From positions 1-17,110 of the forward strand of contig JAWOFP010000018.1 of NCBI GenBank assembly GCA_046497485.1: a stretch of 17,110 nucleotides of DNA. The letters are read 5' to 3'. A program made the translations under genes and the position numbers. Under the pieces are notes generated by a model, which did no database searches, was not told where the DNA came from, and worked only from the letters and a program-made list of their open reading frames with translations. Shown here in pieces: positions 1 through 17,110 of this stretch. How positions within the stretch are numbered: the first letter of the stretch is position 1; the number at the start of each line of letters is the position of its first letter. Source of the DNA: Candidatus Nanohaloarchaea archaeon. Lineage in GTDB: Archaea; Nanohalarchaeota; Nanosalinia; Nanosalinales; Nanosalinaceae.

Positions 1-450
1 CAATTCATAGTCATAACTTACGTTTCCTGAACCAACGTCATACAATATAAGGCCTACTAACAGTATCAGAAGAGCTATTCCTGCTTTCTTCACTTGATTA
101 TTTGTAGGGCTAAACTCTTTCTGAGTTACCATATACCCTAATCCTGCAAAGATTCCGGACGAGACAATTAATGAAAGCATTATTCCATCTGATCCGAAGC
201 CAAATCTTCCCATAGTGTAGAACAATGCGACAATATATGCTCCTGCAGAAAACACATAAGCCAGTACCGAGCTATTTCCTCCGCTTATCAGGCCTAGACC
301 AAGAAAAGTCAGAAATACTGAGAACAGAATAAATGATATTGTGAACGGTGAAAGAGCCACCAAGTACTCAAAACCGAAATATATTATAGCCAGGATTCCT
401 AGAAATGATGACGCGCCGTAAAATATTTTCTCCTGACTGATAAACGCCAT
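1..450 (-). CDS. Multi-pass membrane protein, partial (runs off the left edge of the window)
   Basis: Not in the ORF track. Read by hand: ATG at 450, then 150 open codons to position 1 (MAFISQEKIFYGASSFLGILAIIYFGFEYLVALSPF...GIALLILLVGLILYDVGSGNVSYDYEL), with about 5 hydrophobic segments and an AT-rich TATA-like box about 21-30 nt upstream. Confidence 0.85.
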   Translation of the reverse strand, partial: MAFISQEKIFYGASSFLGILAIIYFGFEYLVALSPFTISFILFSVFLTFLGLGLISGGNSSVLAYVFSAGAYIVALFYTMGRFGFGSDGIMLSLIVSSGIFAGLGYMVTQKEFSPTNNQVKKAGIALLILLVGLILYDVGSGNVSYDYEL

Positions 451-525
451 AAAACCTATTATTCAGGCCTATATTTTATTCTTTGTCTTTCTGTTCGATT
501 AATTCCGAAGCTTTCCGTTGACCAG

Positions 526-2184
526 TTAATCCTCAGCTAAAGGTTCTGGAAGAGGCCTAACCATTCTAGGAACTTGAATCTCTATCTCTTCCTCTATCTC
601 GCCCTCATCCGAGAGCCTCTGGACTTTATCGGCGACAGTATAGAGACCTTCAAGATAGACTAACTGGCCTGAAGCTTCCGTATCAAACATTTCAAGTTTA
701 TCAGTTACCTTCATCAATCTATTTCCTTCATGATGATTGATTAGCGCATACGAACGGTTATCTGCCTCTACTATCTCAAAATAGTAAGCAGGCCTCGACT
801 CAAGATCTATAGAATCTAACTCTTCCAACTCAGAGTTATAGAGAGTTAAACTGCCGTTCTCTCCTGCTCCTGAGACCAAAACTTTATCCTGAGTTGTTTC
901 AACATTCACGGCCTCAACTTCAATTGAGTCAGTGTTGCCTTCATGGTCTATAACCATTAATTGGTTCTCTCCATTTACGAGAACCTTATCGCCGAGTTTT
1001 TCTACATCTTGATATCCTATTTCTAGGCCTTCCGTATCTAAAATCTCTCCATCTCTCAGGATTTCTGTCTCTCTATTCTGGTAATCTATGCCTCTGAACT
1101 CTCTTTTCAGGATCAGTTCTTCTCTCGAGACAATCTGGGTTATTCTTCCATCAAAAGTGTCTTCAGTCACAGAGAGATCAGAGTTATTTATTTTCAGAAG
1201 AGCTGATTCTTCATAATCACTCATATTTTCTTCATCGTAAGAACTGAACTCTTCCTCTAACTCCTTCATATTCTCAGATTCATACTCTCTCATCGCAGCC
1301 TCTAACTCGATCTGCATGCTTCTATCAGTTAAATCATACCCTTGGAGCTCTTGAACTCTTTCACGCATATCTCCGCTGATTGAAGCCTCATTAAGTAGAA
1401 AATCCGTCATTATCTCGCTTTCAGGCCTTCTATCGCTATAGCTGACAAAAGTTGTTTCTTCAGTTACTTCGACTTGAGTCATTGAGGACGCCACAAAACC
1501 TGTTGAATCAATTTCATCGCCAGTTTCCGCATCCAAAGTCGCCAATGTATAGGTATAATCTGTCTGGCCTCCATAATTAGGCCTTAAAACGCTTGTACAG
1601 GCAATCTCTACATCATGCATAGGCCTGATTGGGCAGTTCATATCGTTCTCTCGTGTCAATAGAACCACTCTATCTTTTACAAGTTTCATCTCCTGAACGC
1701 TTGAGTTAAGGCTTCGGCTCCATTCTTTATTCATTTCCTTGTCGTAGCCCACGATTCTATCCTGTTCTTCGATTATAGTCTTGTTTTCCGAGACCAGTGT
1801 AGGGCCTCCAACCTCTGAAATATTGTGTTCTAACTCTAACTCCGGAGTCTTCACTGACTGGAAATGTCTTGGATCCCTGTGAGAAATTAGTATGCTATTT
1901 TTCGTTGTCTGTATCCATTCCGAGGACTTTACAGAGTTTTCCCGTGCAAGGATTTCTGTTTCAGATCCTTGTTCGGAGACTGCATCTTGAGAAGCCGTCG
2001 AACTCTCAGTACTCTCCGTATAACTTGTCTTTGAGGCCTGGCTCTCGCTATTCATGTAGTCTATAAATTCCTGATCCGAGTTAAAAGTAGTAGTCGTTTC
2101 CGTCGATTCCTCAGGGCTTTGATTCATGCAGCCTGAAGTAATTAGAACTAGTCCAAGTAAAATTAGATATAATTTAGTGTTCAT
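526..2184 (-). CDS. Secreted lipoprotein with beta-propeller-like domain (COG4880-like)
   Basis: 552-aa ORF. Hydrophobic signal ending in lipobox ITSGC, then a Ser/Thr/Glu-rich linker. The CPIRP...IAC...DYTYTLATLDAETG segment resembles archaeal COG4880 beta-propeller proteins (recognised from memory, not searched). Confidence 0.7.
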   Translation of the reverse strand: MNTKLYLILLGLVLITSGCMNQSPEESTETTTTFNSDQEFIDYMNSESQASKTSYTESTESSTASQDAVSEQGSETEILARENSVKSSEWIQTTKNSILISHRDPRHFQSVKTPELELEHNISEVGGPTLVSENKTIIEEQDRIVGYDKEMNKEWSRSLNSSVQEMKLVKDRVVLLTRENDMNCPIRPMHDVEIACTSVLRPNYGGQTDYTYTLATLDAETGDEIDSTGFVASSMTQVEVTEETTFVSYSDRRPESEIMTDFLLNEASISGDMRERVQELQGYDLTDRSMQIELEAAMREYESENMKELEEEFSSYDEENMSDYEESALLKINNSDLSVTEDTFDGRITQIVSREELILKREFRGIDYQNRETEILRDGEILDTEGLEIGYQDVEKLGDKVLVNGENQLMVIDHEGNTDSIEVEAVNVETTQDKVLVSGAGENGSLTLYNSELEELDSIDLESRPAYYFEIVEADNRSYALINHHEGNRLMKVTDKLEMFDTEASGQLVYLEGLYTVADKVQRLSDEGEIEEEIEIQVPRMVRPLPEPLAED

Positions 2185-2211
2185 AAACCAGTAAATGGTT
2201 AGACTGGTTTA
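2184..2211. promoter_or_regulatory. Perfect 9-bp inverted repeat between the TATA-like box and the start codon of the beta-propeller lipoprotein; candidate operator
   Basis: TAAACCAGT (2184-2192), 10-nt spacer, ACTGGTTTA (2203-2211). It overlaps the minus-strand TTTTTAAA box at 2208-2215. Confidence 0.45.
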
Positions 2212-2244
2212 AAAACAGGTCGAAGTTGTTCGAATAAAAGAGAA

Positions 2245-2850
2245 CTATACCCCGACTCCTGTCGAGGCCTCAGGCAGCTCAACTTTATCATACTCAATCC
2301 CTAACTCGTTCAAGGCCTGTTCCAAGTGTTCCTCTTTCGCATAATCAGCCCCATCCTCAACTCTCAACTCGTGAGCTTTAGCTAATACTTCCGCTCTCCT
2401 ATCATCCGGAATATTGAACTTGTCAGCTGAAAGTTCCACGACTAAACCATTGTTATCCTGCGTATAGATTGAATGAAAAATCCCCCTATTGAAGATATTA
2501 TAGCCATAACCATTCTCATCTAAGGCCTCTGTAATCTCACCAAACTCCTCAGGATCGATCTTATACGAAATATGGTGAACTGAACCGGTTTGAGGCCTCT
2601 GACCACGAGCAGAATCCCGTTCATCATTCACGAAAAAAGTTAAAATCCTTCCATCCCCCGTATCAAAGAATAAATGAGTCTGATCCGGATCATCCAAATT
2701 AGGCTGCTTCAAAACCAAAGCCATCCCCAGAATATCCTGATAAAACTCTATAGTATCCTCCTCATTACTCCCCCAGATCGTGATATGATCGGTTCCACGG
2801 GTTTTCAACAAACTCTCAGGCCTTTCAGTATCAATGTTAAGTTCTGTCAT
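2245..2850 (-). CDS. VOC family (glyoxalase/extradiol dioxygenase-like) protein, haloarchaeal type
   Basis: GTDHITIWG...EFYQDILGM, HLFFDTGDGRILTFF, GSVHHISY and SIYTQDNNGLVVEL are typical VOC beta-alpha-beta-beta-beta motifs with His/His/Glu metal ligands. Confidence 0.9.
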   Translation of the reverse strand: MTELNIDTERPESLLKTRGTDHITIWGSNEEDTIEFYQDILGMALVLKQPNLDDPDQTHLFFDTGDGRILTFFVNDERDSARGQRPQTGSVHHISYKIDPEEFGEITEALDENGYGYNIFNRGIFHSIYTQDNNGLVVELSADKFNIPDDRRAEVLAKAHELRVEDGADYAKEEHLEQALNELGIEYDKVELPEASTGVGV

Positions 2851-2943
2851 AACTTCAAGTTCGAAGGCCTATATTAAGAATTGAGCGGTTACATCAGCAC
2901 CACAAAGAATCTAAATAAAAATCCTTGTCATCATACAGTAACC

Positions 2944-3519
2944 GTGAGTTACCAAGTCCCTGAAGTATCAGTAGACTACATAGGACTGGACGATCATATC
3001 GATGATGAGCTATCTTTACACCCTCACGAAAGTATCACCAACTACTTTCTCGATTTTAGAGCAGAAGCACAAGATTACCGCAACTTAGATAATTTAGACG
3101 CAGAAATCACAGTAGAAGTCGATGACAAAATACACAACGGAACAGAACCGCGCGAATTCACTGTAGAACCACCAGAATACTTTGAAATCCAAGGCCTAGA
3201 AACTGTAGATGCATTTGAAGCACTGGACTCCAGATTAGACGATAATAAAACAAGTACTTGGAAAATGGTCTACACACCAGAGTCAGAGGATTTTTTGGAA
3301 ATAATTGAGGAACTGGAAAACAATGGACCAGTCTGGAGACTAGACCTGATGGAAGATCATGTCAAAAGCAGCATAGTTTATGACCCTGTAGAGAATTCCT
3401 TCAAAGTTGACGGCCCATTCACATCTGCAGAAAGCAGAGAAGCCACCGAATCCCATCCAACATATGTAACAGCCAACAAAATTCTGGAGGATACAGGCCT
3501 AGATAGACTCGCAAAATAA
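2944..3519 (+). CDS. Hypothetical acidic protein
   Basis: Long ORF with halophile-like D/E content. The in-frame GTG at 2944 is preferred over TTG 2881 because an AT-rich box (TAAATAAAA, 2912-2920) lies about 25-30 nt upstream. No family recognised. Confidence 0.7.
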   Translation: MSYQVPEVSVDYIGLDDHIDDELSLHPHESITNYFLDFRAEAQDYRNLDNLDAEITVEVDDKIHNGTEPREFTVEPPEYFEIQGLETVDAFEALDSRLDDNKTSTWKMVYTPESEDFLEIIEELENNGPVWRLDLMEDHVKSSIVYDPVENSFKVDGPFTSAESREATESHPTYVTANKILEDTGLDRLAK

Positions 3520-3523
3520 GTTA

Positions 3524-3629
3524 TAGCCCCTCCCGGATTCGAACCGGGGGTCTCCGGCTATCTTCTACCAACAGCGTATCCTGTTAGGTAGCCAAAGGCC
3601 GGTGGAGTTGGCCGCTGTCCTAAGGGGCT
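3524..3629 (-). tRNA. tRNA-Gln: tRNA-Gln(TTG) with a 32-nt intron at canonical position 37/38 (intron 3560-3591)
   Basis: The minus strand folds as AGCCCCT/AGGGGCT acceptor with discriminator A, anticodon stem CCGGC/GCCGG with loop CT-TTG-G|A, and T arm CCCGG-TTCGAAT-CCGGG. The intron CTACCTAACAGGATACGCTGTTGGTAGAAGAT forms a BHB: CTTT/GAAG central helix, bulges GG|C and AT|A, outer helix TACC/GGTA. Confidence 0.95.
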
Positions 3630-3643
3630 GTTTTACGGGCCTG

Positions 3644-4477
3644 TTAGCCTCTAGCTTTAATTGGTTGAATGAGTCTTATAAACTTGTCAACTTCATCATT
3701 GGCAGCAACCTGCACTGACCGATAGCCTCCTTTTGATGTCGAGATACCTTCAGTTTCACACATTTCTTTGAAATCATCAAGAAGAGGTTGAGATGCATTC
3801 TTGAATTGTATTACTGTGTCTCCAGGAACCCTCTCATAAACAGTTCCGTCAGTATCAACCAAGCCTTTCAGACACCGAACTCGAAATTCGGGATTTTCCT
3901 TTATCCAACCTGGAACACAAACCTGATTATCAGTCTTGTTACCGGATTCCAGGCCTAATTCTTCTAATCGCTCTACTAAATCCTTTGAATAAACCATAAG
4001 CTTTGCCGCCTTAGAATTAGGCTCAGAATAGTAATTAGGTTCTTTACCTACAGCTTCTAAAAATAATTCTTCAGCCCTATCAATAATCTCTGTCTCATCT
4101 TCGTGAAAACACATATCAACCCTATAGTTCGTAATATGTCTATCTTCCCTTTGTTCGTAAAAATCCTCCATATGTCCGTCTCCGAGCATCATTCCAAAGA
4201 ATTCTGCTAAATCCTTATCTTTAGTCAAACTCAAGACTCTTTTATCGTATGAAACACCATTTCTATGATCTACTAATTCATGCTCAATACTAGACCCAAA
4301 AAGATTTTGCAGCTTCTCAAACACCTCCAAGGACATATTAAAATCTTTATACAGATGATTTTTAAATTCAGTACCTATACACTCGCTTATTTCTCTTATA
4401 GACAAATTTCGTTTTGTTTTAAGATTCTTTCTAACTTTTTGAAGCTCTTCTTTTGAAACAGAGACTCTATTAACCAT
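3644..4477 (-). CDS. Free-standing two-motif LAGLIDADG homing-endonuclease-like protein with an N-terminal HTH-like extension
   Basis: Motif 1 LAEFFGMMLGDG and motif 2 CLKGLVDTDG both retain the catalytic acidic residue. KLMVYSKDLVERLEELGL, VPGWIK and IQFKNASQPLLDDF are typical segments. The N-terminus has LSIREISECIG (HTH-like). No intein splicing blocks seen. Confidence 0.88.
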   Translation of the reverse strand: MVNRVSVSKEELQKVRKNLKTKRNLSIREISECIGTEFKNHLYKDFNMSLEVFEKLQNLFGSSIEHELVDHRNGVSYDKRVLSLTKDKDLAEFFGMMLGDGHMEDFYEQREDRHITNYRVDMCFHEDETEIIDRAEELFLEAVGKEPNYYSEPNSKAAKLMVYSKDLVERLEELGLESGNKTDNQVCVPGWIKENPEFRVRCLKGLVDTDGTVYERVPGDTVIQFKNASQPLLDDFKEMCETEGISTSKGGYRSVQVAANDEVDKFIRLIQPIKARG

Positions 4478-4570
4478 ATTATTGCATAAAGAACTCAGAG
4501 ATTTAAACTTAGATCTATTCAGGCATTTTCATAAAGAAAAAGAATAATTAAATTGTTTCTCTTAGGCTTT

Positions 4571-5002
4571 CTATGAGATTGTTATTATTCCTGTCATTCC
4601 TTGGGCTGCGTGAGTTCCTACTGAGCAGATGAACTCTATTTCACCAGTCTCATCAAAAGTTACTGTGAAGCTTTCTGTTTCTCCTCCTGAGATTACTGAG
4701 GTTCCTTGTCCGAGATCTGGTATCCTCATGTCATGTTGTCCGCCTTCATTCCTGAACACGAACTCTATAGTCTGGCCTTGTTCTACCTCAATGTTTTCTG
4801 GTTCAAAGTAGTAGTTTCCGCCTGATACTTCAATAGTTCTATCTACTTCAGAAGCATCATCAGACTCCGCATTATCCGTCTCTGCCGAAATATTTTCATC
4901 AGGTTCCTCAGGCATATCTTGTTGATCGGTGGTTGAATCCATGCATCCTGAAGTAACTAGTACTAGGCCTAAAATCGCTGCTGCAATAATTTTTGTATCC
5001 AT
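4571..5002 (-). CDS. Lipid-anchored cupredoxin (plastocyanin/halocyanin-like blue copper protein), Met axial ligand
   Basis: Likely start ATG 5002 (MDTKII...), lipobox VTSGC, acidic linker, FEPENIEVEQGQTIEFVF, and type-1 Cu ligands H (GQHDM) plus C-x4-H-x4-M (CSVGTHAAQGM). Confidence 0.92.
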   Translation of the reverse strand: MDTKIIAAAILGLVLVTSGCMDSTTDQQDMPEEPDENISAETDNAESDDASEVDRTIEVSGGNYYFEPENIEVEQGQTIEFVFRNEGGQHDMRIPDLGQGTSVISGGETESFTVTFDETGEIEFICSVGTHAAQGMTGIITIS

Positions 5003-5085
5003 AAACTTTCTTTGGATAACTGTGCTTTTCAATTTTGTGAGTGAGAAAGACAGGTGTTAAAACTCTCGGAGAACTTATCTGAACT

Positions 5086-6141
5086 GTGAAAGAAGAAGTT
5101 GTTGTCGCTGGAGGAGGTATCGCAGGCCTCGAATCAGCTCTCAGACTTGAGAGAAAGGGATTCAAAGTTAAACTTGTAGATCCGGAAGATGGTTTATTTT
5201 TCTATCCTTCAGGTCATAGAATAATTGATGGTGATCCAGCTGAGGAAGTTACGATCAATTATGAAAGAAAGTTCCAAGACAGGGGTATAGAACATATCAA
5301 GGCCTCAGTTACAGATCTGGATAAAGAAGGAAAACGTGTTTCGACAACTTCAGGGAAATTAGACTTTGATTATCTGGTTCTGGCTTTGGGATCTGAGGCG
5401 AACTTCTTTGGGATAGAGACTGATGAGACAGAGTTAATGCGTTACAAAGAGGATCTCGAGGAAATAAATGACAGAATTGAGAAAAAAGACAGTCTGGAGG
5501 CCTTTGTAGTTGGAGGCGGTGCGACCGGTCTAGAAGCAGCAGCATCACTTTCAGAAAGAAAAAATGTCGATGTAATCGTTCTTCAAGCCGTAAATAGGCT
5601 AGTTCCGCAACTGAATGAAAAGACTTCTGAAAAGGCCTTGAAAATCCTTGAAAATAAAGGAGTAAATATCAATCTGAATGAGGCTGTAGAAGAAATTGAA
5701 GATGAAGAGATCAAGACCTCTGATTCAACTTACAATGCTGATCTGATTATCTGGGCGGCTGGAATCAAGAAAAGAGAATTTCTAAATGATTTAGAGCTTT
5801 CACAGAATGACAAAGGCCTTTTAGTGGATGAGCATCAGAGAATTGAGGGAGAAGAAAATATATTTGCTGTAGGCGATAACTGCTTCTACGATGGGAAGAA
5901 ATCCAGGGCGCTTTATGCATTATTTGAGTCTAAAGCAGCTGCAAAAAATATTTACCGGACAGAAAACAGTAAGAATTTGGTAGAGAGACAGATTCATTAT
6001 GACCCGATTCTTCTTTACATGGGTAAACACAGCTCAATTCTGGAACTCAAAAACTTCTGTTTCTCAGGCCTGATACCTTCACTGATAGAAAAATTCGGTG
6101 TAGAAAAACGCTACATGTTGCTCAGAAAGCATATACTTTAG
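5086..6141 (+). CDS. NAD(P)/FAD-dependent oxidoreductase, type II NADH dehydrogenase-like (Pyr_redox_2)
   Basis: Two Rossmann motifs (VVAGGGIAG and VVGGGATGLE), DYLVLALGS, IIWAAG, IFAVGD. GTG start. Confidence 0.88.
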   Translation: MKEEVVVAGGGIAGLESALRLERKGFKVKLVDPEDGLFFYPSGHRIIDGDPAEEVTINYERKFQDRGIEHIKASVTDLDKEGKRVSTTSGKLDFDYLVLALGSEANFFGIETDETELMRYKEDLEEINDRIEKKDSLEAFVVGGGATGLEAAASLSERKNVDVIVLQAVNRLVPQLNEKTSEKALKILENKGVNINLNEAVEEIEDEEIKTSDSTYNADLIIWAAGIKKREFLNDLELSQNDKGLLVDEHQRIEGEENIFAVGDNCFYDGKKSRALYALFESKAAAKNIYRTENSKNLVERQIHYDPILLYMGKHSSILELKNFCFSGLIPSLIEKFGVEKRYMLLRKHIL

Positions 6142-6211
6142 CCCCCCCAGGATTCGAACCTGGGTCACCAGCCCCAGAAGCTGGTAGGATTGGCCACTAC
6201 CCCAGGGGGCT
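6139..6211 (-). tRNA. tRNA-Gln: tRNA-Gln(CTG), intron-less
   Basis: Minus strand reads AGCCCCC-TG-GGGTAGTGGCCAATCCT-A-CCAGC-TTCTGGG-GCTGG-TGAC-CCAGG-TTCGAAT-CCTGG-GGGGGCT-A (73 nt), with the A1-U72 pair typical of archaeal tRNA-Gln. Confidence 0.96.
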
Positions 6212-6252
6212 TATATCAACTCCTTCACGGCAATTCTTAATAACTGTAGAGG

Positions 6253-7155
6253 TCAGAAGGCCTGAAGCAGTATATACCCGATGAATATTAGGAGAAGTAT
6301 TACTGCTTCTATTCTTGAGAACTCTCCTTTCCATGAGAAAAACATGGCGAATGCTCCGACTATTACAAGTGCGAGTAGTACGGGTACGAGAGAGACTATT
6401 GATGGGGTCGAGATAAGGCCTAGAATTGAAAGCGTTAAGGTGATGTTTACCAGTGTTGATCCGAATATGTCTCCTAGTGCGAGGGAGGTATCGCCTTTTT
6501 TGACTGCTGCTATCTCAAACGCGAGTTCTGGAAGGCCTGTGCCGACCGCTACTACTGTTGCGCCCAGTATCTCGATTGGTATCCCGAGTACTTCTCCCAG
6601 TCCTTTTGCTCCCGTAACCATTAGCCTTGCCGAGAATAGGAGAGCTGCGACTCCTGCTAAAGTCAGTAAAACTGTTTTAGCTGAGGCCTCTTCTTTCTCA
6701 TTCATTTTAAATGACGAATGCTCTGCCCTGTAGAGAAAGCCTCCGTAGAGACCAAGTAAAATTATGACAACTATGAACGATAGATTTTGGAAGATGATCA
6801 GTGTGAGTGCTGCAAGCATTGTAGCAATTCCGGCGTCTCTAATCAGTTCAAGATCTTCTCCTTCTAGTTCAAGGCCTTTCGCTGCGAAAATTGTTATTCC
6901 TAATACGAATGTCAGGTTTACGAGAGAAGAACCTATGATGTCCCCCGCTGAGAGCTGTGGTACGCCTTCATAAGCTGATATAATTGCTGTGGCGATTTCC
7001 GGTAGACCTGTGGAGACTGACATGAAGACTGCTCCAAACATGAAGCTTGGAAGCCCTAAGGCCTTAATCAGTTTCTCAGCATTATCCACAGTTTTATCCG
7101 CTGAAAGCCATAATCCTATCAGTCCTGCTACAAGCAGTAAAATGTATTCAATCAT
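6253..7155 (-). CDS. Sodium:calcium antiporter (CaCA family, YrbG/NCX-like)
   Basis: About 10 TM segments with the two alpha repeats STGLPE...GDIIGSSLVN and GTGLPE...GDIFGSTLVN. Confidence 0.93.
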   Translation of the reverse strand: MIEYILLLVAGLIGLWLSADKTVDNAEKLIKALGLPSFMFGAVFMSVSTGLPEIATAIISAYEGVPQLSAGDIIGSSLVNLTFVLGITIFAAKGLELEGEDLELIRDAGIATMLAALTLIIFQNLSFIVVIILLGLYGGFLYRAEHSSFKMNEKEEASAKTVLLTLAGVAALLFSARLMVTGAKGLGEVLGIPIEILGATVVAVGTGLPELAFEIAAVKKGDTSLALGDIFGSTLVNITLTLSILGLISTPSIVSLVPVLLALVIVGAFAMFFSWKGEFSRIEAVILLLIFIGYILLQAF

Positions 7156-7184
7156 CTATGTCTAACTTTCAGGCCTGACAGGTT

Positions 7185-7979: not shown

Positions 7980-8040
7980 CAACTAAAACTTTGTTACAGG
8001 CCTAAATAAATTCTGTTATTTTGTTCGATAGAGATAGAAT

Positions 8041-9978
8041 CTAGATATCGGTTTTCTTCAATAACTGGGCATTGAAAGCAACTATAATTGTCGAAAGCGA
8101 CATAACTAGAGCACCGACAGCAGGTTGTAGTACAAGACCTATTGGCGCTGCAATTCCGGCCGCTAATGGAATCGCAAACGCGTTATAGCCTGTAGCCCAG
8201 AAAAGATTCTGCACCATCTTCGAGTAAGTCGCTTCCGAAATTTTCATAATCTTCACAACTCCTAGAGGACTATCATTAACGAGGACTATATCTGCAGATT
8301 CAACTGCTACATCTGTTCCGCTTCCAATCGCTACTCCGACATCTGCCCGAGTTAGTGCGACCGCATCATTTACACCGTCACCGACCATCATAACTTCTCC
8401 ATCTTCTTGAAGCTCCTGTACTTTCTTATCCTTCTCATCAGGGAGAACTTCAGCAAACCAGCTATCAATACCAAGCTCGTCCGCAACGGCTGAAGCCACA
8501 TCCTCAGAGTCACCAGTGATCATCGCAACTTCAACCCCTCTCTCATGCAAGACCTCAACTGTTTCGCGGCTTTCATCTCTTATATGGTCGCCGAGAGAGA
8601 CAGCACCAAGGATTTCGTCTTTAATTAAGCATACTACTGTCCGACCTTTGTCTCCTTCGTTTTCAGCAAATTCTTCGTATATAGTTTCGATTCCTAACTC
8701 TTCAAGCATCTTAGGCCCTCCAGCATAGTATGTTTCGCCTTCAATATCAGCTTTGACGCCTTTTCCCTTGATAGCTTCAAAATTATCTGTCTCAAGTAAA
8801 TTTAGTCCTCTTTCTTCTGCTTCTTCGACTATTGCTTTTCCAATAATATGTTCGGAGTTCTTCTCAATAGATGCAAGCTTCTGAAGATTCTCATCGCTAA
8901 TATTTGAGCCCTCTACTTTTTGTTCTCCTTCTGTCAGTGTTCCAGTCTTGTCGAACGCTACTGTGTCAATCTCTCTGGCCTGTTCCATCGCAGTTCTGTC
9001 ACGGACAACCGCCCCGTTCTTCGCGGACAAGGCCGTACTGATCGATACTACGAGAGGTATTGCGAGTCCTAGTGCGTGCGGACATGCGATTACAAGCACA
9101 GTTACTACTCTTTCTAATGTTGTCAACCCAAGGCCTGTAGCGAGAGTCCATGCGACCCCAGTAACGAATGCAGATCCTAGTGCGATGTAGAAAAGCCATC
9201 CTGCAGCTTTATCTGCGAGAAGCTGAGTCTCCGTCTTGTCTTCTTGGGCTTCGTCCACAAGCTTCATGATCCCAGACAATGCAGTGTCGTCTCCGGTTGC
9301 AGTAATCTTTACGCGAAGTGCGCCTTCCTGATTAACAGTTCCTCCGATTACTTCGTCTCCTTCAGACTTTGAGACCGGTTCAGACTCTCCTGTAATCATC
9401 GATTCATCGACCGATGAGTCTCCGTCGATTACTTCTCCATCGGCAGGAATCGAGCTTCCAGGCCGTACAAGTACTTTATCGCCTTTTTCCAGCTCCGAGA
9501 CTTCTATTTCCTCAGTCTCGTCTCCTTCAACTATTTTTTCGGCTGTATTCGGCACTAAGTCTTTGAGCTCATCAAGTGCAGATGAGGCCTGGCGCACAGA
9601 TCTCATTTCGATCCAGTGGCCGAGCAGCATGATATCAATCAGAGTTACTAGCTCCCAGAAGAATGAGGATGCGTCAGCAATAAATAGCGAAACTATACTG
9701 TAAGTAAAGGCCACCATTATGGCTAGAGAAATCAAAGCCATCATCCCTGGCTTTCTATCTTCTAGCTCGCCCTTCGCCATTTTAAGAAATGGTAGGCCTC
9801 CATATAGAAAGATTATTATGGAGAATACTGGGACAATAAGATTGCTGCCGGCGAATTCGATAGGATTATAGTTTAAGAGACCTGATACAAATGTCGAAAA
9901 GTATAGAACCGGTATAGATAGAGCTGTTGAGATGAAGAATTTCTTCTTGAACATTTTTTCGTGGTGTTTATGACTCAC
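8041..9978 (-). CDS. copB: Copper-translocating P1B-type ATPase, CopB (P1B-3) type
   Basis: CPH motif ([10 protein letters not shown]), DKTGTLT phosphorylation site, TGES, SEH, GDGVNDA, YN and MSLS TM motifs, LLGHWIEM. Only a short His-containing N-terminus (MSHKHH). Confidence 0.93.
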
Positions 9979-10001
9979 TTTTCTAGGCCTCTATCTTCTA
10001 G

Positions 10002-10151
10002 TTATTCTTCCTGCTGTTTATTTTGTGTTATTTCCTGTATAATATAGATTACTCCGAGTGCTGCAAGTATCAAGATTATCAGCCCTGTTAATGGTCCGAA
10101 ACCGTACATTCCCAATCCGTGGCCGATTCCCGTCATTATTTCGTGCATCAT
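10002..10151 (-). CDS. 49-aa Met/His/Gly-rich single-pass membrane microprotein (not in the ORF track)
   Basis: MMHEIMTGIGHGLGMYGFGPLTGLIILILAALGVIYIIQEITQNKQQEE*. The ATG overlaps the TGA of the DUF305 gene (ATGA), and the ORF fills the gap to within 23 nt of copB. Confidence 0.8.
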   Translation of the reverse strand: MMHEIMTGIGHGLGMYGFGPLTGLIILILAALGVIYIIQEITQNKQQEE

Positions 10152-10714
10152 AGTATTTCTTCCTCCTGCCATCTCCGCATTCTTTCTATCTCGTTTTCTT
10201 GGGCATCTATCATCTGTCCCTGCATCTCTCGGAGTTCGGTGTTTTCTCCAGAGTTGTAGAAGTTCTGCGCCATTGTAATACCGCCTTCATGATGCTCAAT
10301 CATTAACTCAGCAAACAACTGGTTGTATTCACTACCGTTACTGTTTCTCAACTGTTGCATCTCTTCCTGCGAAGCCATTCCAGCCATAGGATGATGGTTT
10401 CCGGGATTATATCCGAGTTCCTGCATCCATTCTATCATCTGTTCATTTTCTCGTGTCTGAGCTTCTGAAATATTGTTTGAAAGTTCGAGTATATTCTCGT
10501 TATCTGTCCTATTTTCTGACAGCTCTGCCATTTCGATCGCTTGGTTATGGTGCACGATCATCATGTTCATGAACATCACATCGTTTCTGTTGAAATCGCC
10601 GTTTTCAGTAGTATCTGTATCTGTTTGAACCAGTACAAACCCTGATATGACCAGAATACCTGCTGCTACAAAAGCAATTTTCTTGATGTTGAAATTTTCA
10701 GTTTCTAAATCCAC
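10148..10714 (-). CDS. DUF305 (CopM-like) membrane-anchored copper-binding protein
   Basis: N-terminal TM helix and two DUF305 repeats: DVMFMNMMIVHHNQAIEMA and LFAELMIEHHEGGITMA...IDAQENEIERM. Confidence 0.92.
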   Translation of the reverse strand: MDLETENFNIKKIAFVAAGILVISGFVLVQTDTDTTENGDFNRNDVMFMNMMIVHHNQAIEMAELSENRTDNENILELSNNISEAQTRENEQMIEWMQELGYNPGNHHPMAGMASQEEMQQLRNSNGSEYNQLFAELMIEHHEGGITMAQNFYNSGENTELREMQGQMIDAQENEIERMRRWQEEEIL

Positions 10715-10740
10715 AATAACGTTGTATGCTAAATCCTTTT

Positions 10741-10785
10741 TATATCATATAGTGATACATCATTTTTATATCATATGCTGACATA
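10741..10785. promoter_or_regulatory. Two tandem imperfect palindromes (TATATCA-N5-TGAYAYA); candidate operators of the PadR-like regulator in a divergent promoter
   Basis: TATATCA-TATAG-TGATACA (10741-10759) and TATATCA-TATGC-TGACATA (10767-10785), 26 bp apart. Each lies within a 14-nt direct repeat TTTTTATATCATAT (10737-10750, 10763-10776). Confidence 0.65.
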
Positions 10786-10794
10786 GTGACGTGC

Positions 10795-11190
10795 ATGGAA
10801 GACCTAAATATTTCAAATACTACAAAACTCTACACGCTTTTACTACTGGAAACAGAACCTAAACACGGATACCAGATAATAGACGACCTAGAGCAGATAA
10901 CAGGAAAAAGACCTACAACATCTCACATCTATCCTTTCCTGCAGGAATTATCCGATCGAGATTACGTGGATACGCATAAAGAAGGCCGGAAAAAAGTCTA
11001 CGAACTAACACAAAACGGAGAAAACTTTGTAGAGGAACAGATCAGCTCCTTCAGCGAAATCCTGGACGCAGCTTTACAGGATAAAATCACTGAATGCAGT
11101 CATTGCGGCTGTGAAATTTATTCCGGAGGTTACGAAGAGAATGGAGAAGTTTTCTGCTGTAAACACTGCGCGTCAAACAGTGAAGAATAA
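10795..11190 (+). CDS. PadR-family winged-helix regulator with a C-terminal Cys-rich metal-binding domain
   Basis: PKHGYQII, HIYPFLQEL and GRKKVYELTQNG match PadR. The tail is CSHCGC-x14-FCCKHC. ATG 10795 is preferred; GTG 10786 is the alternative. Confidence 0.9.
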   Translation: MEDLNISNTTKLYTLLLLETEPKHGYQIIDDLEQITGKRPTTSHIYPFLQELSDRDYVDTHKEGRKKVYELTQNGENFVEEQISSFSEILDAALQDKITECSHCGCEIYSGGYEENGEVFCCKHCASNSEE

Positions 11191-11202
11191 GAAAAAATAA
11201 AA

Positions 11203-11607
11203 TTAGGTTACTGTGATTAGGCCTCTCTGACCTTGTTCAGCGTGATTTCCTACTGAGCAAAGGAACTCAAATTCTCCCGTCTCATCGAAAGTTACCACGA
11301 AGCTTCTGGTTTCTTCTCCTACGAATGTTTCAGTACCTGCATCAAGCTCCGGAATCTTCAGGTTATGAGTTCCTTCAACATTTTCAAAATTAAATTTGAC
11401 AGTCTCTCCTTCCTCAAACTCTAGTTCAAGATCTTCCCTTTCGCCGTCAATTTCGTACCAAATATTTCCTCCCGTTACATTGACAGTTCTATCTACCTCT
11501 ACATCTTCAGTAGGAGCTTCTGAATTTTCTGCAGAATTCATACAGCCTGAGGTTATCAGTACTAGGCCTAAGAGTATTAAAGCCGTCTTTGTATTTGAAA
11601 AGTTCAT
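11203..11607 (-). CDS. Lipid-anchored cupredoxin, Gln at the axial ligand position
   Basis: Lipobox ITSGC; GTHNL plus CSVGNHAEQGQ. Paralogue of 4571-5002 (shared V.VDRT..V.GGN and F.VTFDETGE.EF.CSVG.HA.QG). Confidence 0.9.
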   Translation of the reverse strand: MNFSNTKTALILLGLVLITSGCMNSAENSEAPTEDVEVDRTVNVTGGNIWYEIDGEREDLELEFEEGETVKFNFENVEGTHNLKIPELDAGTETFVGEETRSFVVTFDETGEFEFLCSVGNHAEQGQRGLITVT

Positions 11608-11643
11608 TAACTCAAAGTTCGGTCTGGTCTTTCAAATAGTTTG

Positions 11644-12123
11644 TTAGAAAGGAAGATATGGTTTCAAGTGAATCATTAGAATGATTGTCCACCATCCAAC
11701 AACCGATATAAGTCCGAAGACTGCGGCAAACTTCTCAAAATGAGTAACATCTTTGTTATGAGATGGCCATTCATCCGCTAGGTCTTGAAAACGCGGATAG
11801 ACTTTTTCATTCAAGATAATACCGTTAATGAATATTACTGAAACTAGAGCCATTTTTACATGGAAGAAAGTGCCTTGAGCAATTCCGGGATTAGTGTAGA
11901 TCAAAAATGCCCCTGTAAAACCTATTATTCCGAGGCCTATCCAGATAAGAAGCGACATCAAAAGCGAGACTTTAGCTAGAACTGTTGAAAACTTGTTTTT
12001 GAAATGAAGATACATCAGCATTGAGTCTGTTGCTGTTACAGCGCCGACAGCTATAATAGCGCCGATAAAATGAAACATTCTAACACTGACCTGTGGATCC
12101 ATTAAGGCCTCTACCAGAGTCAT
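11644..12123 (-). CDS. Four-TM membrane protein, tentatively CopD/DUF2269-like fold
   Basis: Four hydrophobic helices with a His in TM1 (MFHFIG) and FHVKMALV before TM3. ATG 12123 is preferred because GAGGTG lies upstream and it overlaps the previous ORF's stop (ATGA). The family assignment is tentative. Confidence 0.75.
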   Translation of the reverse strand: MTLVEALMDPQVSVRMFHFIGAIIAVGAVTATDSMLMYLHFKNKFSTVLAKVSLLMSLLIWIGLGIIGFTGAFLIYTNPGIAQGTFFHVKMALVSVIFINGIILNEKVYPRFQDLADEWPSHNKDVTHFEKFAAVFGLISVVGWWTIILMIHLKPYLPF

Positions 12124-12233
12124 TCCCACTCCACCTCTCTAAGCTTCTGCACATGCTCTCTGATATAGTATAGAGAAACTCCTGCGATTACAAGAGCAAA
12201 AATGGTGAAAACTAGATGCAGAGACTCTATCAT
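12120..12233 (-). CDS. 37-aa single-pass membrane microprotein (not in the ORF track)
   Basis: MIESLHLVFTIFALVIAGVSLYYIREHVQKLREVEWE*. A TATA-like TTAAATA lies about 22-28 nt upstream of the ATG, and the stop overlaps the next ATG (ATGA). Confidence 0.72.
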   Translation of the reverse strand: MIESLHLVFTIFALVIAGVSLYYIREHVQKLREVEWE

Positions 12234-12290
12234 AAGTTAAGTTTCGAGGCCTGCTATTTAATTCTTGACTAAATCTCTCCAAAAAATGTT

Positions 12291-13247
12291 TTACTGGCTG
12301 GCATCGTCACCGGCGTTTTCTTCCATTTCTTCGGCATCTTCTTCATTTTCTACCGCTTCTTTAGTTTCGTCTTCTGCTTTTCCGACTTCATCCATCAAGT
12401 TGCCAAAGTTCTGCTGGAACTGCTCATTAGCCATTCCTGCGTTTTCCGCCATCCTATCTATCTCCTGTAACAAGTTTAGCAACTGTTCAGCTTCTTGGTA
12501 TGTATGTTTGGTTTCAGATTCCAGTTCTTCTTCAGTGGCTTCAGCTTCATCAATCAAGTTTAGAAGCTGCTTTCTACCTTGTTCAGTCTGCTGTTCATCT
12601 CTAGCTGTATGCCTCTCAAGTTCATGGATAAACTCGTTCAGCCTCTGACTGTTTATCCTCTGAGATAATTCCTCAACTTCTCCTTCTTCAAACTGTTCTT
12701 CTTTCTCGAGTTTCTCGGCCTTAATTATTTCCTGAGCTGTAAAACCTAGTTCTTGGGCTAATTCCTGAGATATATTTGAGGCCTGTAATTCTTCGTTTGC
12801 TTCATCAAGTATTAGATCGGCCGCATTTTTGCTGTTTTCAAATAATGCCTCTAAAGTCTCCATACTTAATTCAAAATTAGGATCTTCCTTAATCTTCGTA
12901 ATAAGATTCTGGACTTGCTGAATACTTTGATCAGCCTTCTGCTCCTCAGAATTCAAGGCATCTACTATATTTTCAAGGTCTTGGACAGCTTCACCTTCTC
13001 CCTCGACTATTTGAATCAAAAATTGAACCATCTTATCTTCTTCATTTACCTCTACTTTTTCTTCCTGTCTTAGCCTTTCAAGCCGGTCTTCTGTAATTTT
13101 ACCTTGTTTAAGGCCTCGAATCAACTCCTGGGTCTCATCTTCCTTATTTTTTTCATCATCTTCCATTTCAGCAAGAGTTCCAAGAAGAGACTCAGTAGAA
13201 CTTATCACTTTGCTCGTAGCCTCTAAACCCTTAACAATTCTCTCCAT
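12291..13247 (-). CDS. Highly acidic predicted coiled-coil protein of unknown function
   Basis: 318 aa, E/Q/L/A-rich, almost no Pro and few aromatics, with helical heptad-like patterning. Confidence 0.8.
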   Translation of the reverse strand: MERIVKGLEATSKVISSTESLLGTLAEMEDDEKNKEDETQELIRGLKQGKITEDRLERLRQEEKVEVNEEDKMVQFLIQIVEGEGEAVQDLENIVDALNSEEQKADQSIQQVQNLITKIKEDPNFELSMETLEALFENSKNAADLILDEANEELQASNISQELAQELGFTAQEIIKAEKLEKEEQFEEGEVEELSQRINSQRLNEFIHELERHTARDEQQTEQGRKQLLNLIDEAEATEEELESETKHTYQEAEQLLNLLQEIDRMAENAGMANEQFQQNFGNLMDEVGKAEDETKEAVENEEDAEEMEENAGDDASQ

Positions 13248-13280
13248 AGGCCTTAATTTCAGTAGAAGAATTAAAGAAGT

Positions 13281-13306
13281 TTCGCCGGAGCTGAGATTAA
13301 TGAACC
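13281..13306 (-). repeat. Degenerate direct repeat of the tRNA-Ser 3' end (att-like)
   Basis: TTCGCCGGAGCTGAGATTAATGAACC (13281-13306) versus TTCGCCGGAGCTGGGATT--TGAACC (13383-13406): 13 nt exact, one substitution and a 2-nt indel. Confidence 0.75.
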
Positions 13307-13384
13307 AACTGCCGGAAGCAGTTGACAGTTCCTTGAGGCCTGGATTTTCAGGCCTCTATATGATCGAAACTCTGTATATGAGTT

Positions 13385-13472
13385 CGCCGGAGCTGGGATT
13401 TGAACCCAGGAGGGCGCGTAATGGCCCACCAGCTTTCCAGGCTGGCACCTTTAGCCACTCAGTCACTCCGGC
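13385..13472 (-). tRNA. tRNA-Ser: tRNA-Ser(GGA)
   Basis: GCCGGAG/CTCCGGC acceptor with discriminator G, anticodon arm CCAGC-CTGGAAA-GCTGG, long variable arm GGGC...GCCC, and T arm CTGGG-TTCAAAT-CCCAG (88 nt). Confidence 0.96.
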
Positions 13473-13566
13473 TTAACTGGCAATCCAGTTAGCAGATATG
13501 GATGATTACAAGAACCATCTCCTATGAAATTATAGGCCTCTAGAAGCTTTAAATTAGAAAGGGAAA

Positions 13567-14133
13567 CTATGCTTTTTTCTCGACATATTTTTCCTCAATC
13601 TTCTTGAATAGTTCTAGGCCTTTCTCAGTATTAAACCGTCCTCTTGAGGTCTCAAAGAATTCATCTAATCCTTCAAAATCCGTCTCAGGATTTCCTTCGT
13701 AACGGTCTTCCGACTCGTATTTCAAGGCCTGTAGACACATATCAATCAAGTCCATATCTTTCACAAATTTAGCCTCACTGGACTCTCTTTCCTCATATTC
13801 TTTCCAGAGATCAAATACCTCATTGTTTAATGATTCAGATAGGTTCTTCACTGCCTCATATTCCTGTTCCTCTTTATCTTCTCGTCCATAATCTTTCTCA
13901 GCCCGGTACGGAATATCTCCAATCTCTGACTCGCCAATATCATGGATTAAAGCAATTTTTAGAGCCTTAACTTCGTTGAGCGCTTCCGACATATGGATCA
14001 TAGTTAGGGTCGCGACACTCCAAGAATGAGATGCAACTGTTTCAGGATCCTCTACGTTGTAAATCTGCCAACCTGTTCTCTTTACATCTTTCAAGTCAAG
14101 AACTTCTAAGTATTCATCGATCACTGCTTCCAC
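13567..14133 (-). CDS. HD-domain phosphohydrolase (YfbR/HDDC2-like 5'-deoxynucleotidase family)
   Basis: LKDVKRTGW, ETVASHSW, ALIHDIGESEIGDI and EAKFVKDMDLIDM. The GTG start overlaps the end of cbf5 by 13 nt. Confidence 0.92.
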   Translation of the reverse strand: MEAVIDEYLEVLDLKDVKRTGWQIYNVEDPETVASHSWSVATLTMIHMSEALNEVKALKIALIHDIGESEIGDIPYRAEKDYGREDKEEQEYEAVKNLSESLNNEVFDLWKEYEERESSEAKFVKDMDLIDMCLQALKYESEDRYEGNPETDFEGLDEFFETSRGRFNTEKGLELFKKIEEKYVEKKA

Positions 14134-15086
14134 CGTTTAGGGTAGATTCCAGGATCCATGTAAACATTATTCACATTTACAGCTTCCAAATCGGAGTCAA
14201 ACATTTTTTGAGAACTAGTTTTAGCTTTTCCAAGCGCAATAAGCTCTCCTTTCAGTGTTACTATCGCCACAGTTTCGCCTTCGGATATATTGCCCTGCAG
14301 CTTTGAGACGCCTGAAGACCCAAGGTTTGAGCCATTAGCTACGGCATTTACGGCTGAATCCTTCACAACTATCTTTCTTAGATGGGTTACAGCCCTTTCA
14401 ATAGGATTTAAGACTTCTCTCAAGGCCTCTTCATTATTATCTTCTGTGTAGAATTTGTAGGCATCTACTACTTCCTGTAACGTATTCAGGTTTTCTTCTG
14501 TCAGGCCTCCCTGCATAGTTCTTCTTAACTCCGTCATCTCTGCTTCTGTATCAAGTTTTTCGCCCAGCTGTTCTGCTAGGACTCTTACATAGAAGCCTGA
14601 TTCACATTTTACTCTACCTAGAACCTTTTTTCCCTCTACTTCAATCAGTTCGATCTCGTAGACTTCTCTTTCTCTTTCCTGTTTCTTGACAGCGGATTTT
14701 TCCGGAGGCACCTGCTTATTAGTTCCTTTAAACTCCTGTAAAATTTCTCTAACTTTTTCTTCAGGCCTTTCATGATTTAATTTAATCTCGAAAATATATT
14801 CTTTATCGGCTTTAGAAAGCGCAGGATTGATCCTAGTACCCGAGTCTAGGCCTATCGGTAGAATCCCTGTCGCGTTTGGATCCAAGGTACCGAAATGGCC
14901 TGTCTTCTTCAGTTTTAATTCTTCCTTCACCCAGTAGCTTACTTGATTGCTTGTAGGGCCGTAAGGCTTGTCAATTACTACAAATCCTTTATCCAGTAAG
15001 TCTTCGATAGATCGTTTTTCGGGTATTGATCCAAACTTAGGATCTGTCTCGGCCTCTTCTTTAGTGTACCAGGTTTCCTGCTTCAT
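14121..15086 (-). CDS. cbf5: H/ACA RNA-guided / tRNA Psi55 pseudouridine synthase Cbf5
   Basis: IDKPYGPTSNQV, GHFGTLDPNATG (catalytic Asp), QVPPEKSAVK, CESGFYVR, MTELRRT and a C-terminal PUA domain ending YPKRWK. Confidence 0.96.
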   Translation of the reverse strand: MKQETWYTKEEAETDPKFGSIPEKRSIEDLLDKGFVVIDKPYGPTSNQVSYWVKEELKLKKTGHFGTLDPNATGILPIGLDSGTRINPALSKADKEYIFEIKLNHERPEEKVREILQEFKGTNKQVPPEKSAVKKQEREREVYEIELIEVEGKKVLGRVKCESGFYVRVLAEQLGEKLDTEAEMTELRRTMQGGLTEENLNTLQEVVDAYKFYTEDNNEEALREVLNPIERAVTHLRKIVVKDSAVNAVANGSNLGSSGVSKLQGNISEGETVAIVTLKGELIALGKAKTSSQKMFDSDLEAVNVNNVYMDPGIYPKRWKQ

Positions 15087-15111
15087 AGCTACAAGTGTAA
15101 AAGGAATTTTT

Positions 15112-15687: not shown

Positions 15688-15713
15688 AACTCTTAACCTT
15701 GACTAAATCTTTT

Positions 15714-16445: not shown

Positions 16446-16490
16446 ATAATGTTTTGAGGGAAGACATGTTTTTAAACCCGAACCAAGGAT

Positions 16491-16802
16491 CTACTCCATC
16501 AAGTGTAAAGCCCCACTTAAGGCCTTTGCAAGTTCTAAGCCCTTTTCTGTTAGCTCGATTTCTTTTTTCCGGCCTTTCATATTGGACTCTACCAAGCCTC
16601 CGTCCTCCAGTTTCTGTATAATTCTAACAGTGTGGGAATATGTGCAGTCAGTCTCTTTTGAAATCGCTGATGCATAGTTATCTGTTCCCGGATTATTCAA
16701 TGTGATAAGTATTTTTACCGGCTTTACATTCAGAAAAAAGCTTTCTAAATCTTCCATTGATTCTATACCCCTTCCCCTACATGTTATTTGTTTTCCAAAC
16801 AT
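16491..16802 (-). CDS. Winged-helix (MarR-like) DNA-binding protein
   Basis: KPVKILITL, YASAISKETDCTYSHTVRIIQKLEDGGLV and KGRKKEIELTEKG. GGAGG lies 6 nt upstream of ATG 16802; ATG 16757 (MEDLESFF) is an alternative start. Confidence 0.88.
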   Translation of the reverse strand: MFGKQITCRGRGIESMEDLESFFLNVKPVKILITLNNPGTDNYASAISKETDCTYSHTVRIIQKLEDGGLVESNMKGRKKEIELTEKGLELAKALSGALHLME

Positions 16803-16882
16803 ATAATTCCTCCGGTCACCCCAGTGTAATTATAGAGGTTAAAAACAATTACGGCTGTAAGTATAATTATAGGTGAAGAAAA

Positions 16883-17080
16883 ATGGAATTTACTACTCCA
16901 AAAATGAAAGAGACAATCAAAAAACAAACCAGTAAAAGAGTTTCAGAAGACGCAGCAAACAGTCTTGGAGACATCTTGGAGACCTTCGCAGGCGACGTAG
17001 CAGAAGAAGCAAAAGCCATCGCGGAAGAAGACGGAAGAAAGACAGTCAGAAGAGAAGACATCAGACAGGCCCTAGAATAA
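16883..17080 (+). CDS. Archaeal histone (HMf-like fold), divergent variant
   Basis: 65 aa, aligns without gaps to HMfB (RVSEDA, GRKTV..EDI). SD-like AGGTGA upstream; pyrimidine/T-rich tract downstream. Confidence 0.95.
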   Translation: MEFTTPKMKETIKKQTSKRVSEDAANSLGDILETFAGDVAEEAKAIAEEDGRKTVRREDIRQALE

Positions 17081-17110
17081 AGGCCTAATTTTCCCTTCTC
17101 TTATTTTTGG

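Follow-up and report, generated by a model that had tools for sequence, protein, structure and literature searches.

Why would an archaeal genome repeat one six-base word every few hundred bases? The question is raised by a 17,110-nucleotide stretch of a Candidatus Nanohaloarchaea archaeon (contig JAWOFP010000018.1, positions 1 to 17,110; hereafter the window, meaning the whole stretch), in which a sequence-only reading had counted about 64 copies of the palindrome AGGCCT where 2–3 were expected, an excess of ~25-fold. The count is exactly 64. Base composition predicts 2.7 copies and dinucleotide shuffling (n = 200) gave a mean of 3.82 (standard deviation 1.69, maximum 9), with none of the 200 shuffles reaching 64; relative to composition the window is enriched 24-fold, and relative to the shuffles 17-fold. 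The copies had also been placed in genes on both strands, in different reading frames and between genes, and this description was correct. Relative to 19 open reading frames (ORFs), 25 copies encode Gly-Leu, 18 Glu/Lys/Gln-Ala, and 8 Arg-Pro, while 13 lie outside ORFs, four of these near the contig ends, where the ORF list omits open-ended frames. The predicted nanohaloarchaeal origin agrees with the TruB protein of the window, which shares 69% identity with its counterpart in CP046106.1 (Ca. Nanohaloarchaea archaeon M3_22); CP046106.1 has 43 AGGCCT copies in the 21 kb examined.

The genome that holds the window (G000; 66 contigs, 967,558 bases in total, the window being contig C48) contains 3,249 copies. 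Confinement to the window, an outcome that the sequence-only reading had allowed for, is not what we found: the density is ~3.4 per kb overall, about one per 300 bp, and 1.8–5.8 per kb on each of the 66 contigs. AGGCCT ranked first among the hexamers of G000 under order-0 and order-2 Markov models, and its observed/expected ratio was 21, 14.8, 6.4, 2.3, and 1.09 at orders 0 to 4, respectively. The order-4 value, which had been proposed as a check, leaves next to no excess, but this collapse is circular and no refutation, because the constituent 5-mers are mostly pieces of AGGCCT (T comes after 88% of AGGCC, and 70% of GGCC lie within AGGCCT). The excess is confirmed as real and genome-wide.

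The order-4 ratio of just 1.09 might be taken to favor AGGCCT as a by-product of codon, dipeptide, or composition bias, or of a tendency to avoid hairpins or short repeats. A 7.5-fold excess remained when amino acids and codon usage were held fixed: 756 ORFs of at least 450 nt contain 2,625 copies versus 352 after within-gene shuffling of synonymous codons, the second control that had been suggested. The coding copies are split over the three reading frames (467/895/1,263). They occupy 67% of the coding places where the amino acids permit the word (2,612 of 3,873), as against 3–15% for eight control hexamers. Relative to codon use outside the motif, the odds are raised 42-fold for Arg-Pro, 43-fold for Glu/Lys/Gln-Ala, and 25-fold for x-Gly-Leu; the corresponding values in a motif-free relative (G024) are 0.9, 0.7, and 0.2. 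Non-coding DNA holds 323 copies versus 10.9 expected, and short spacers (28.9 kb) hold 113 versus 2.2, an excess of ~50-fold. Together with the mutual repulsion of the copies, which is specific to AGGCCT and absent from other hexamers (see below), these results refute the by-product explanation, whose remaining probability is negligible. They bear out the original suggestion of an iterated palindrome resembling the cyanobacterial highly iterated palindrome (HIP) 1, beyond any dipeptide or codon preference, and the codon-shuffle, spacer, and odds results also support the proposed dedicated sequence-specific mechanism.

We found that protein sequences are altered so as to accommodate the word. 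In aligned orthologues, the permitted places number 1,777 in G000 versus 1,100 in G024. The observed/expected ratios in G000 and G024 are 1.60 versus 0.81 for Arg-Pro, 1.43 versus 1.01 for Gly-Leu, 1.74 versus 0.97 for [EKQ]A[FYCWLS], and 0.84 versus 1.07 for Lys-Pro. No marked bias was seen at gene starts or stops. Occupancy in ribosomal-protein and conserved genes is not clearly lower, and a few highly expressed genes have no site.

Spacing, core, and near-misses of the site

Copies of AGGCCT in G000 avoid one another at short range, with 53 neighbors <25 bp apart versus 262 expected. When occupancy was permuted among the permitted coding places as the null, the pair counts in the first three 10-bp bins were 0.11, 0.32, and 0.62 of expectation, approaching ~1 by 110 bp. 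Permitted places were occupied in 6 of 48 cases at 10 bp or less from another site, versus 573 of 761 at 100–150 bp. An additive exponential repulsion (2.4 log-odds, 34 bp) lay 103 log-units above no repulsion and 30 above a step footprint. Pooling three genomes gave a repulsion scale of 40 bp, with no clear helical period (10-bp or 30-bp phase) in the site spacing. Pairs of other hexamers, whether direct or inverted, show no depletion (0.9–1.95). At longer range, gaps >1 kb number 82 in G000 versus 103 under random spacing, and site counts are Poisson-like at 0.5–5 kb (variance/mean 0.8–1.35, measured in the enriched relatives G050 and G005).

Words that keep GGCC are repelled from AGGCCT at 9–15 bp, whereas words that break it are not, as represented by AGGCC[A/C/G] (0.34–0.47) and AGGTCT/AGGACT (1.0). 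The flanks show a weak preference for A at 2–4 bases outside the word. The ratio of AGGCCT to AGGCCC/GGGCCT is 3.8–5.2 in genus g19 and 7–19 in the remaining enriched genomes; in G050, further xGGCCx words are over-represented as well. The core is thus shown to be GGCC with purine/pyrimidine shoulders, whose strictness varies by lineage. Since such a pattern is expected from a dimeric protein reading this core and its shoulders, we infer a reader of that kind.

In very-short-patch repair, known from Dcm/Vsr and, in archaea, from MIG together with a GGCC methylase, a methylation word can become enriched through a sequence-specific bias of repair, and T-containing near-misses are depleted. Unlike in that system, the transition near-misses of AGGCCT are in excess in G000 (AAGCCT, 36 vs 10 expected; AGGTCT, 59 vs 23; AGACCT, 52 vs 39), and no Vsr or shared methylase was found in the searches described below. 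The near-misses are therefore not consumed, as such repair would do. In G024 the same words stand at 1.1–1.3 times expectation, and in G005 (420 kb examined) a near-miss excess was not clear (6 vs 8.5).

Distribution among relatives and the search for a causal gene

Among 50 genomes of the family, 12 including G000 are enriched at ~2–4.8 copies per kb, and 11 of the 49 relatives accordingly carry the word about every 200–500 bases. Four enriched genomes belong to genus g1, three to g7, three to g19, and two of six to g2. Another 37 of the 50 are at or below 1.6 times the reversed-word control, and G004 is intermediate, with 0.97 per kb (395 kb examined). Enrichment is missing in four of six g2 genomes, in all four of g21, and in all 20 genomes from four other families, so that the recurrence across Nanohaloarchaeota for which a survey had been proposed holds in part of this family and does not extend to those 20 genomes. 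An RpoA' tree of 30 genomes places all enriched genomes in one clade (100/97), which includes negative genera too; the backbone is unresolved, and several gains or several losses therefore both fit. In G004, the congeneric sister of G000, the excess is 3–9 times, transition near-misses are ~2 times expected, and the dipeptide excess is retained. G004 is losing AGGCCT, and the word is decaying there.

Islands and mobile genes of G000 (a transposase-like gene and a provirus-like stretch) are without the word, while 20 copies lie within 8 kb of a low-G+C provirus-like stretch in G050. Neither the whole of G024 nor 2–15 kb samples of the negative genomes revealed another iterated word. The three most depleted genomes, G020, G024, and G021, have 73, 97, and 55 copies. 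G020 and G024 encode a C5 methylase adjoining an NgoPII-family endonuclease, and are the only two of the 50 genomes with that endonuclease, which G021 is without. We take its specificity to be GGCC, which is consistent with the GGCC observed/expected ratio of 0.44 in G024. The methylase–endonuclease pairs are near-identical in these two genera. ACGT is strongly avoided in both G000 (0.39 of expectation) and G024 (0.25), regardless of AGGCCT enrichment.

A viral scan with a triple-site pattern (10 of 64 parts) returned 121 loci; on comparison with nanohaloarchaeal proteins, none of the 25 most enriched, several of which are short repeat-rich pieces, resembled a nanohaloarchaeal virus, and a provirus ATPase query gave no matches. 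Two non-repetitive viral contigs, L271 and L304, have 13 and 27 copies in 8 kb, and L271 has a match to a C5 methylase. Their excess is partly by construction, since the search pattern itself picked them out.

A methylase with biased repair had been offered as the mechanism, with co-occurrence of a methyltransferase or Vsr-like gene as its expected trace. Neither was borne out: no such gene tracks AGGCCT among the families to which the search was limited (PF00145, PF01555 and, in G000, PF02086, together with Vsr), and C-to-T near-misses are in excess. The PF00145 C5 methylase is present in G000 and in none of six other enriched genomes searched, three of those being single-contig. Two of the 12 enriched genomes, one of them borderline, have a PF01555 N4/N6 methylase above the cut-off, compared with 10 of 38 others; PF02086 is absent from G000, and Vsr was found in none of five genomes searched. 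The G000 C5 methylase lies in an island locus beside an AAA ATPase, with four AGGCCT copies in 2.7 kb; its neighbors form a McrBC-like pair that is 71–76% identical in G050, which suggests a recently shared defense island. NucS is present in 46 of the 50 genomes, and an alignment of four showed no obvious loss.

Gene content was profiled twice. The first profile took G000 proteins common to the complete, enriched G050 and missing or weak in the complete, non-enriched G024, giving 58 candidates; 29 candidates from it and a wider list were annotated, and five of them were searched in other genomes. Because G024 is a special negative with its NgoPII-family system, the second was drawn against G004 and comprised 316 G050 proteins common to G000 and not found in the examined half of G004, 194 of which were annotated. 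G024 and G050 are the only complete genomes in the profiling (G005 was represented by 420 kb and G004 by 395 kb), and most candidates were annotated, not searched. None of ten proteins from both rounds tracks AGGCCT.

DnaG occurs in 10 of the 12 enriched genomes and in 26 of the remaining 38. Its gene is cleanly deleted in G004, where the flanking genes abut with a 14-base gap, as one of ~10 syntenic losses; exosome subunits are present there. Archaeal DnaG, which is also missing from all four g21 and both g15 genomes, has an RNA role that suffices for it here. An ART-like protein of 146 aa occurs in just one of three enriched genomes, a 212-aa protein without known function is missing from enriched G005, and the stand-alone LAGLIDADG protein is absent from enriched G010. 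An alkyltransferase-like protein and a small S-adenosylmethionine methyltransferase are present in negative G021 too. A 407-aa nuclease-fold-like protein (Atlas score under 0.9, a lead only) is absent from G004 but present in three of three negatives, and an Ogg-like HhH protein occurs in all 12 enriched genomes but also in 20 of 38 others. Conserved proteins of 162 aa and 113 aa, the latter histone-fold-like, occur in four and five, respectively, of five non-enriched genomes tested. By design, presence/absence profiling would be escaped by a shared protein with changed specificity or by a host factor.

Three of these proteins have features of their own. The 162-aa protein, a candidate lineage-specific chromatin protein, has no Pfam match, is 80–87% identical family-wide, and adjoins a histone gene. 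The 113-aa protein (76–88% identical family-wide, no Pfam match, with a distant paralogue) has what we take, by eye, to be a resemblance to the histone fold. The LAGLIDADG gene of the window (277 aa) has 40% homologues in G050 and G024 and an 81% identical C-terminal remnant in G004, with no match in G010 or G021; it is possibly a domesticated or decaying homing endonuclease.

Proposed mechanism, alternatives, and known systems

We favor, at a probability of about 0.45, a putative dimeric DNA-binding factor that gives strands with the site an advantage in recombination or repair, each site covering 35–100 bp. A factor of two-fold symmetry, probably a dimer, would read AGGCCT on double-stranded DNA and promote the site-bearing strand during homologous recombination or repair. 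One site would likely serve 35–100 bp, and a second in the same tract would add almost nothing: it would be of next to no use within 10 bp and of reduced use out to ~100 bp. The advantage would lie in a transmission bias (molecular drive) and not in an essential function. We prefer such a bias because the word is dispensable at lineage scale, uniform, and gap-tolerant, is carried by a resident mobile element, and shows a local saturation comparable to that of uptake sites. The signs of dispensability are the lack of start/stop bias, the tolerance of long gaps and site-free islands, the absence of the word from four of six g2 genomes and from all of g21, and the decay in G004. AGGCCT would decay by transitions once the factor disappears, is blocked, or meets an opposing GGCC restriction system. 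As no tested gene tracks the word, the factor is likely a specificity variant of a family-wide protein, or is supplied by the host. Two precedents are in line with this proposal: in H. influenzae, uptake is not increased by a second site within 100 bp, and such motifs can arise through drive alone (PMC7811141); for HIP1, integration was up to 7-fold higher with a homologous site (bioRxiv 2024.09.10.611283).

Several points weigh against the proposal. The factor is not pinned to any protein among those searched. ComEC (PF03772) was found in none of the 50 genomes by a model that also missed four of four archaeal controls, so that a divergent archaeal channel is possible; among the sequence-specific proteins envisaged at the outset, the uptake option is weakened by this result. 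Drive and selection give an identical equilibrium pattern, and the conservation and strain tests did not separate them. Site sharing with orthologues had an odds ratio of 2.2–3.3, about that of control words at saturated synonymous sites (phi 0.17–0.25 vs control means of 0.14–0.16, at saturated fourfold sites of 0.36–0.42 identity), and strain variants, among those listed, missed four of four third positions in two sites versus 34 of 97 in the background, which is not significant. The 35-bp scale is short for transformation tracts and close to the size of a protein footprint. Finally, Xu et al. found HIP1 to be kept by selection, not by biased repair (PMC5861425).

Uniform coverage, a short redundancy range, and a weak flank preference would also follow if selection maintained AGGCCT as the binding site for an abundant protein of chromatin or architectural type. 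Such a protein would nucleate at the word and extend over a few dozen bases, making close sites redundant. The proteins of G050 include two histones and further small, conserved ones that are DNA-binding-like, and HIP1 has been argued to be selected for chromosome structure (PMC5861425). We nevertheless consider this explanation unlikely, given the lack of a clear 10-bp or 30-bp phase, the better fit of an exponential than of a step, the loss of the word within genera, and the occurrence of the 162-aa and 113-aa proteins in non-enriched genomes. A methylation- or modification-linked ratchet, as in Elhai's HIP model, acting via an unrecognized or haloarchaeal-host-delivered enzyme, appears improbable on the methylase and Vsr counts given above and on the near-misses, which are not depleted. 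That model does predict saturation near existing sites (PMC4390886), and hypermutable cytosines would give the excess of transitions away from AGGCCT; it has been suggested that a nanohaloarchaeon exports a methylase to its host (PMC11001535), and in one bacterium AGGCCT is known to be a target of methylation (PMC12128166). The absence of the word from recently acquired G000 DNA (the transposase-like gene, islands, and provirus-like stretch) and the presence of an AddA-like helicase-nuclease would suit a Chi-like self mark that stops a nuclease digesting host or viral DNA and so protects the symbiont's own. Protection should reward even spacing over long distances, whereas the counts are Poisson-like at 0.5–5 kb and long gaps are near random, and the helicase is also present in G024 and G004; this reading is very improbable.

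The systems closest to AGGCCT are HIP1 (GCGATCGC) and the alternate cyanobacterial HIPs (PMC4390886, PMC5861425, PMC13756078). Like HIP1, AGGCCT is a short palindrome, far over-represented in all frames and in intergenic DNA, patchy among relatives, and without a settled function. In contrast to HIP1, it reaches ~3.4 per kb, compared with roughly 1 per kb in Elhai's model (PMC4390886). It further differs in being archaeal, in having no cognate methylase in the families searched, and in its repulsion over ~35 bp. HIP1 has a periodicity of 10–90 kb; the dispersion measured here covers 0.5–5 kb.

DNA uptake sequences are longer than AGGCCT and non-palindromic. The uptake signal sequences (USS) of Pasteurellaceae and the DNA uptake sequences (DUS) of Neisseria form the second close system (PMC7811141, PMC2817400), which AGGCCT resembles in its accumulation by point mutation, its scarcity in newly acquired DNA, the adjustment of the proteome, and a local saturation like that of USS described above. 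However, 23% of USS have another one within 100 bp, and some of these form hairpin pairs where genes end (PMC7811141), while AGGCCT avoids close pairs. It is also without marked gene-end bias and without a detected ComEC. We place the word in neither family, because a HIP methylase and ComEC are both missing from our searches. Chi sites, recognized by RecBCD/AddAB, are asymmetric and strand-oriented. AGGCCT is comparable to Chi as a short over-represented word possibly acting in recombination in a genome that encodes an AddA-like helicase-nuclease, but it is a perfect palindrome and the helicase does not track it.

Our literature search, which did not extend to supplements and subscription papers, returned no report of an archaeal HIP or of AGGCCT iteration in nanohaloarchaea. 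Two nanohaloarchaeal methylome papers report GDGCHC, and their main text never mentions GGCC (PMC10266531, PMC11001535). A fuller claim would be that AGGCCT is the first archaeal highly iterated palindrome, maintained by a methylation-independent, sequence-specific recombination or repair drive that rewrites proteins, is switched on or off within genera by a specificity change in a shared protein or by a host-supplied factor, and meets opposition from GGCC restriction systems in sister lineages; as a whole, we regard this claim as doubtful. Why genomes iterate a short word thousands of times is a question that HIP1 has left open for three decades. Here a HIP1-like pattern occurs in an archaeon of ~1,000 genes in which the methylase typical of HIPs is missing among the families searched, and close relatives have, lack, or lose the word. 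A DNA-level force altering proteins in a minimal symbiont would bias codon analyses and those of nonsynonymous versus synonymous change (dN/dS), and AGGCCT can serve as a signature for binning these lineages together with their mobile elements.

Coordinates and neighboring genes

Table 1. Positions of the AGGCCT copies and other features; locations without a prefix refer to the window.
Feature	Location	Strand	Remark
AGGCCT dispersed copies, n = 64	50..17086	.	Subset of genome-wide 3,249
AGGCCT starts 1–32	50, 290, 465, 553, 790, 1025, 1423, 1579, 1621, 2034, 2265, 2313, 2523, 2593, 2818, 2865, 3192, 3495, 3951, 4965, 5124, 5300, 5498, 5633, 5814, 6066, 6258, 6416, 6533, 6684, 6872, 7059
AGGCCT starts 33–64	7171, 7406, 7906, 7998, 9131, 9585, 9794, 9985, 11219, 11564, 11933, 12105, 12247, 12779, 13111, 13248, 13336, 13350, 13534, 13616, 13725, 14423, 14503, 14763, 14848, 15263, 15315, 15479, 16108, 16330, 16520, 17081
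Nine interior copies outside the 19 ORFs	2865..13539 (2865, 7171, 7998, 9985, 12247, 13248, 13336, 13350, 13534)	.	DNA-level signal
Tightest pair, starts 14 bp apart	13336..13355	.	Adjoins tRNA-Ser 13385-13472; such pairs rare genome-wide
Longest AGGCCT-free stretch	9991..11218	.	Holds DUF305 and PadR genes; gaps >1 kb tolerated
TruB/Cbf5 gene	14121..15086	-	Four AGGCCT copies; used solely for placing the genome among nanohaloarchaea
Stand-alone LAGLIDADG gene	3644-4477	-	277 aa
Copper-related cluster	4571-11607		Cupredoxin, P-type ATPase, DUF305, PadR genes
C5 methylase beside McrBC-like pair	L001:98-2728 (G000 C53)
C5 methylase and NgoPII-family endonuclease pairs	L006:1456-3375 and L005:1456-3355 (G024, G020)
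162-aa protein	L150:5754-6242	-
113-aa protein	L117:13207-13548	-
PAPS-reductase-domain protein	L152:5524-6453	+

Outside the main subject, a PAPS-reductase-domain protein, presumably CysD-like, is 83–85% identical among G000, G050, and G024, well above the average of ~67%. Relatives of the P-type ATPase in the window's copper-related cluster show 84–88% identity in AGGCCT-rich metagenome contigs, and most of those at 67–69% lie in poorer contigs.

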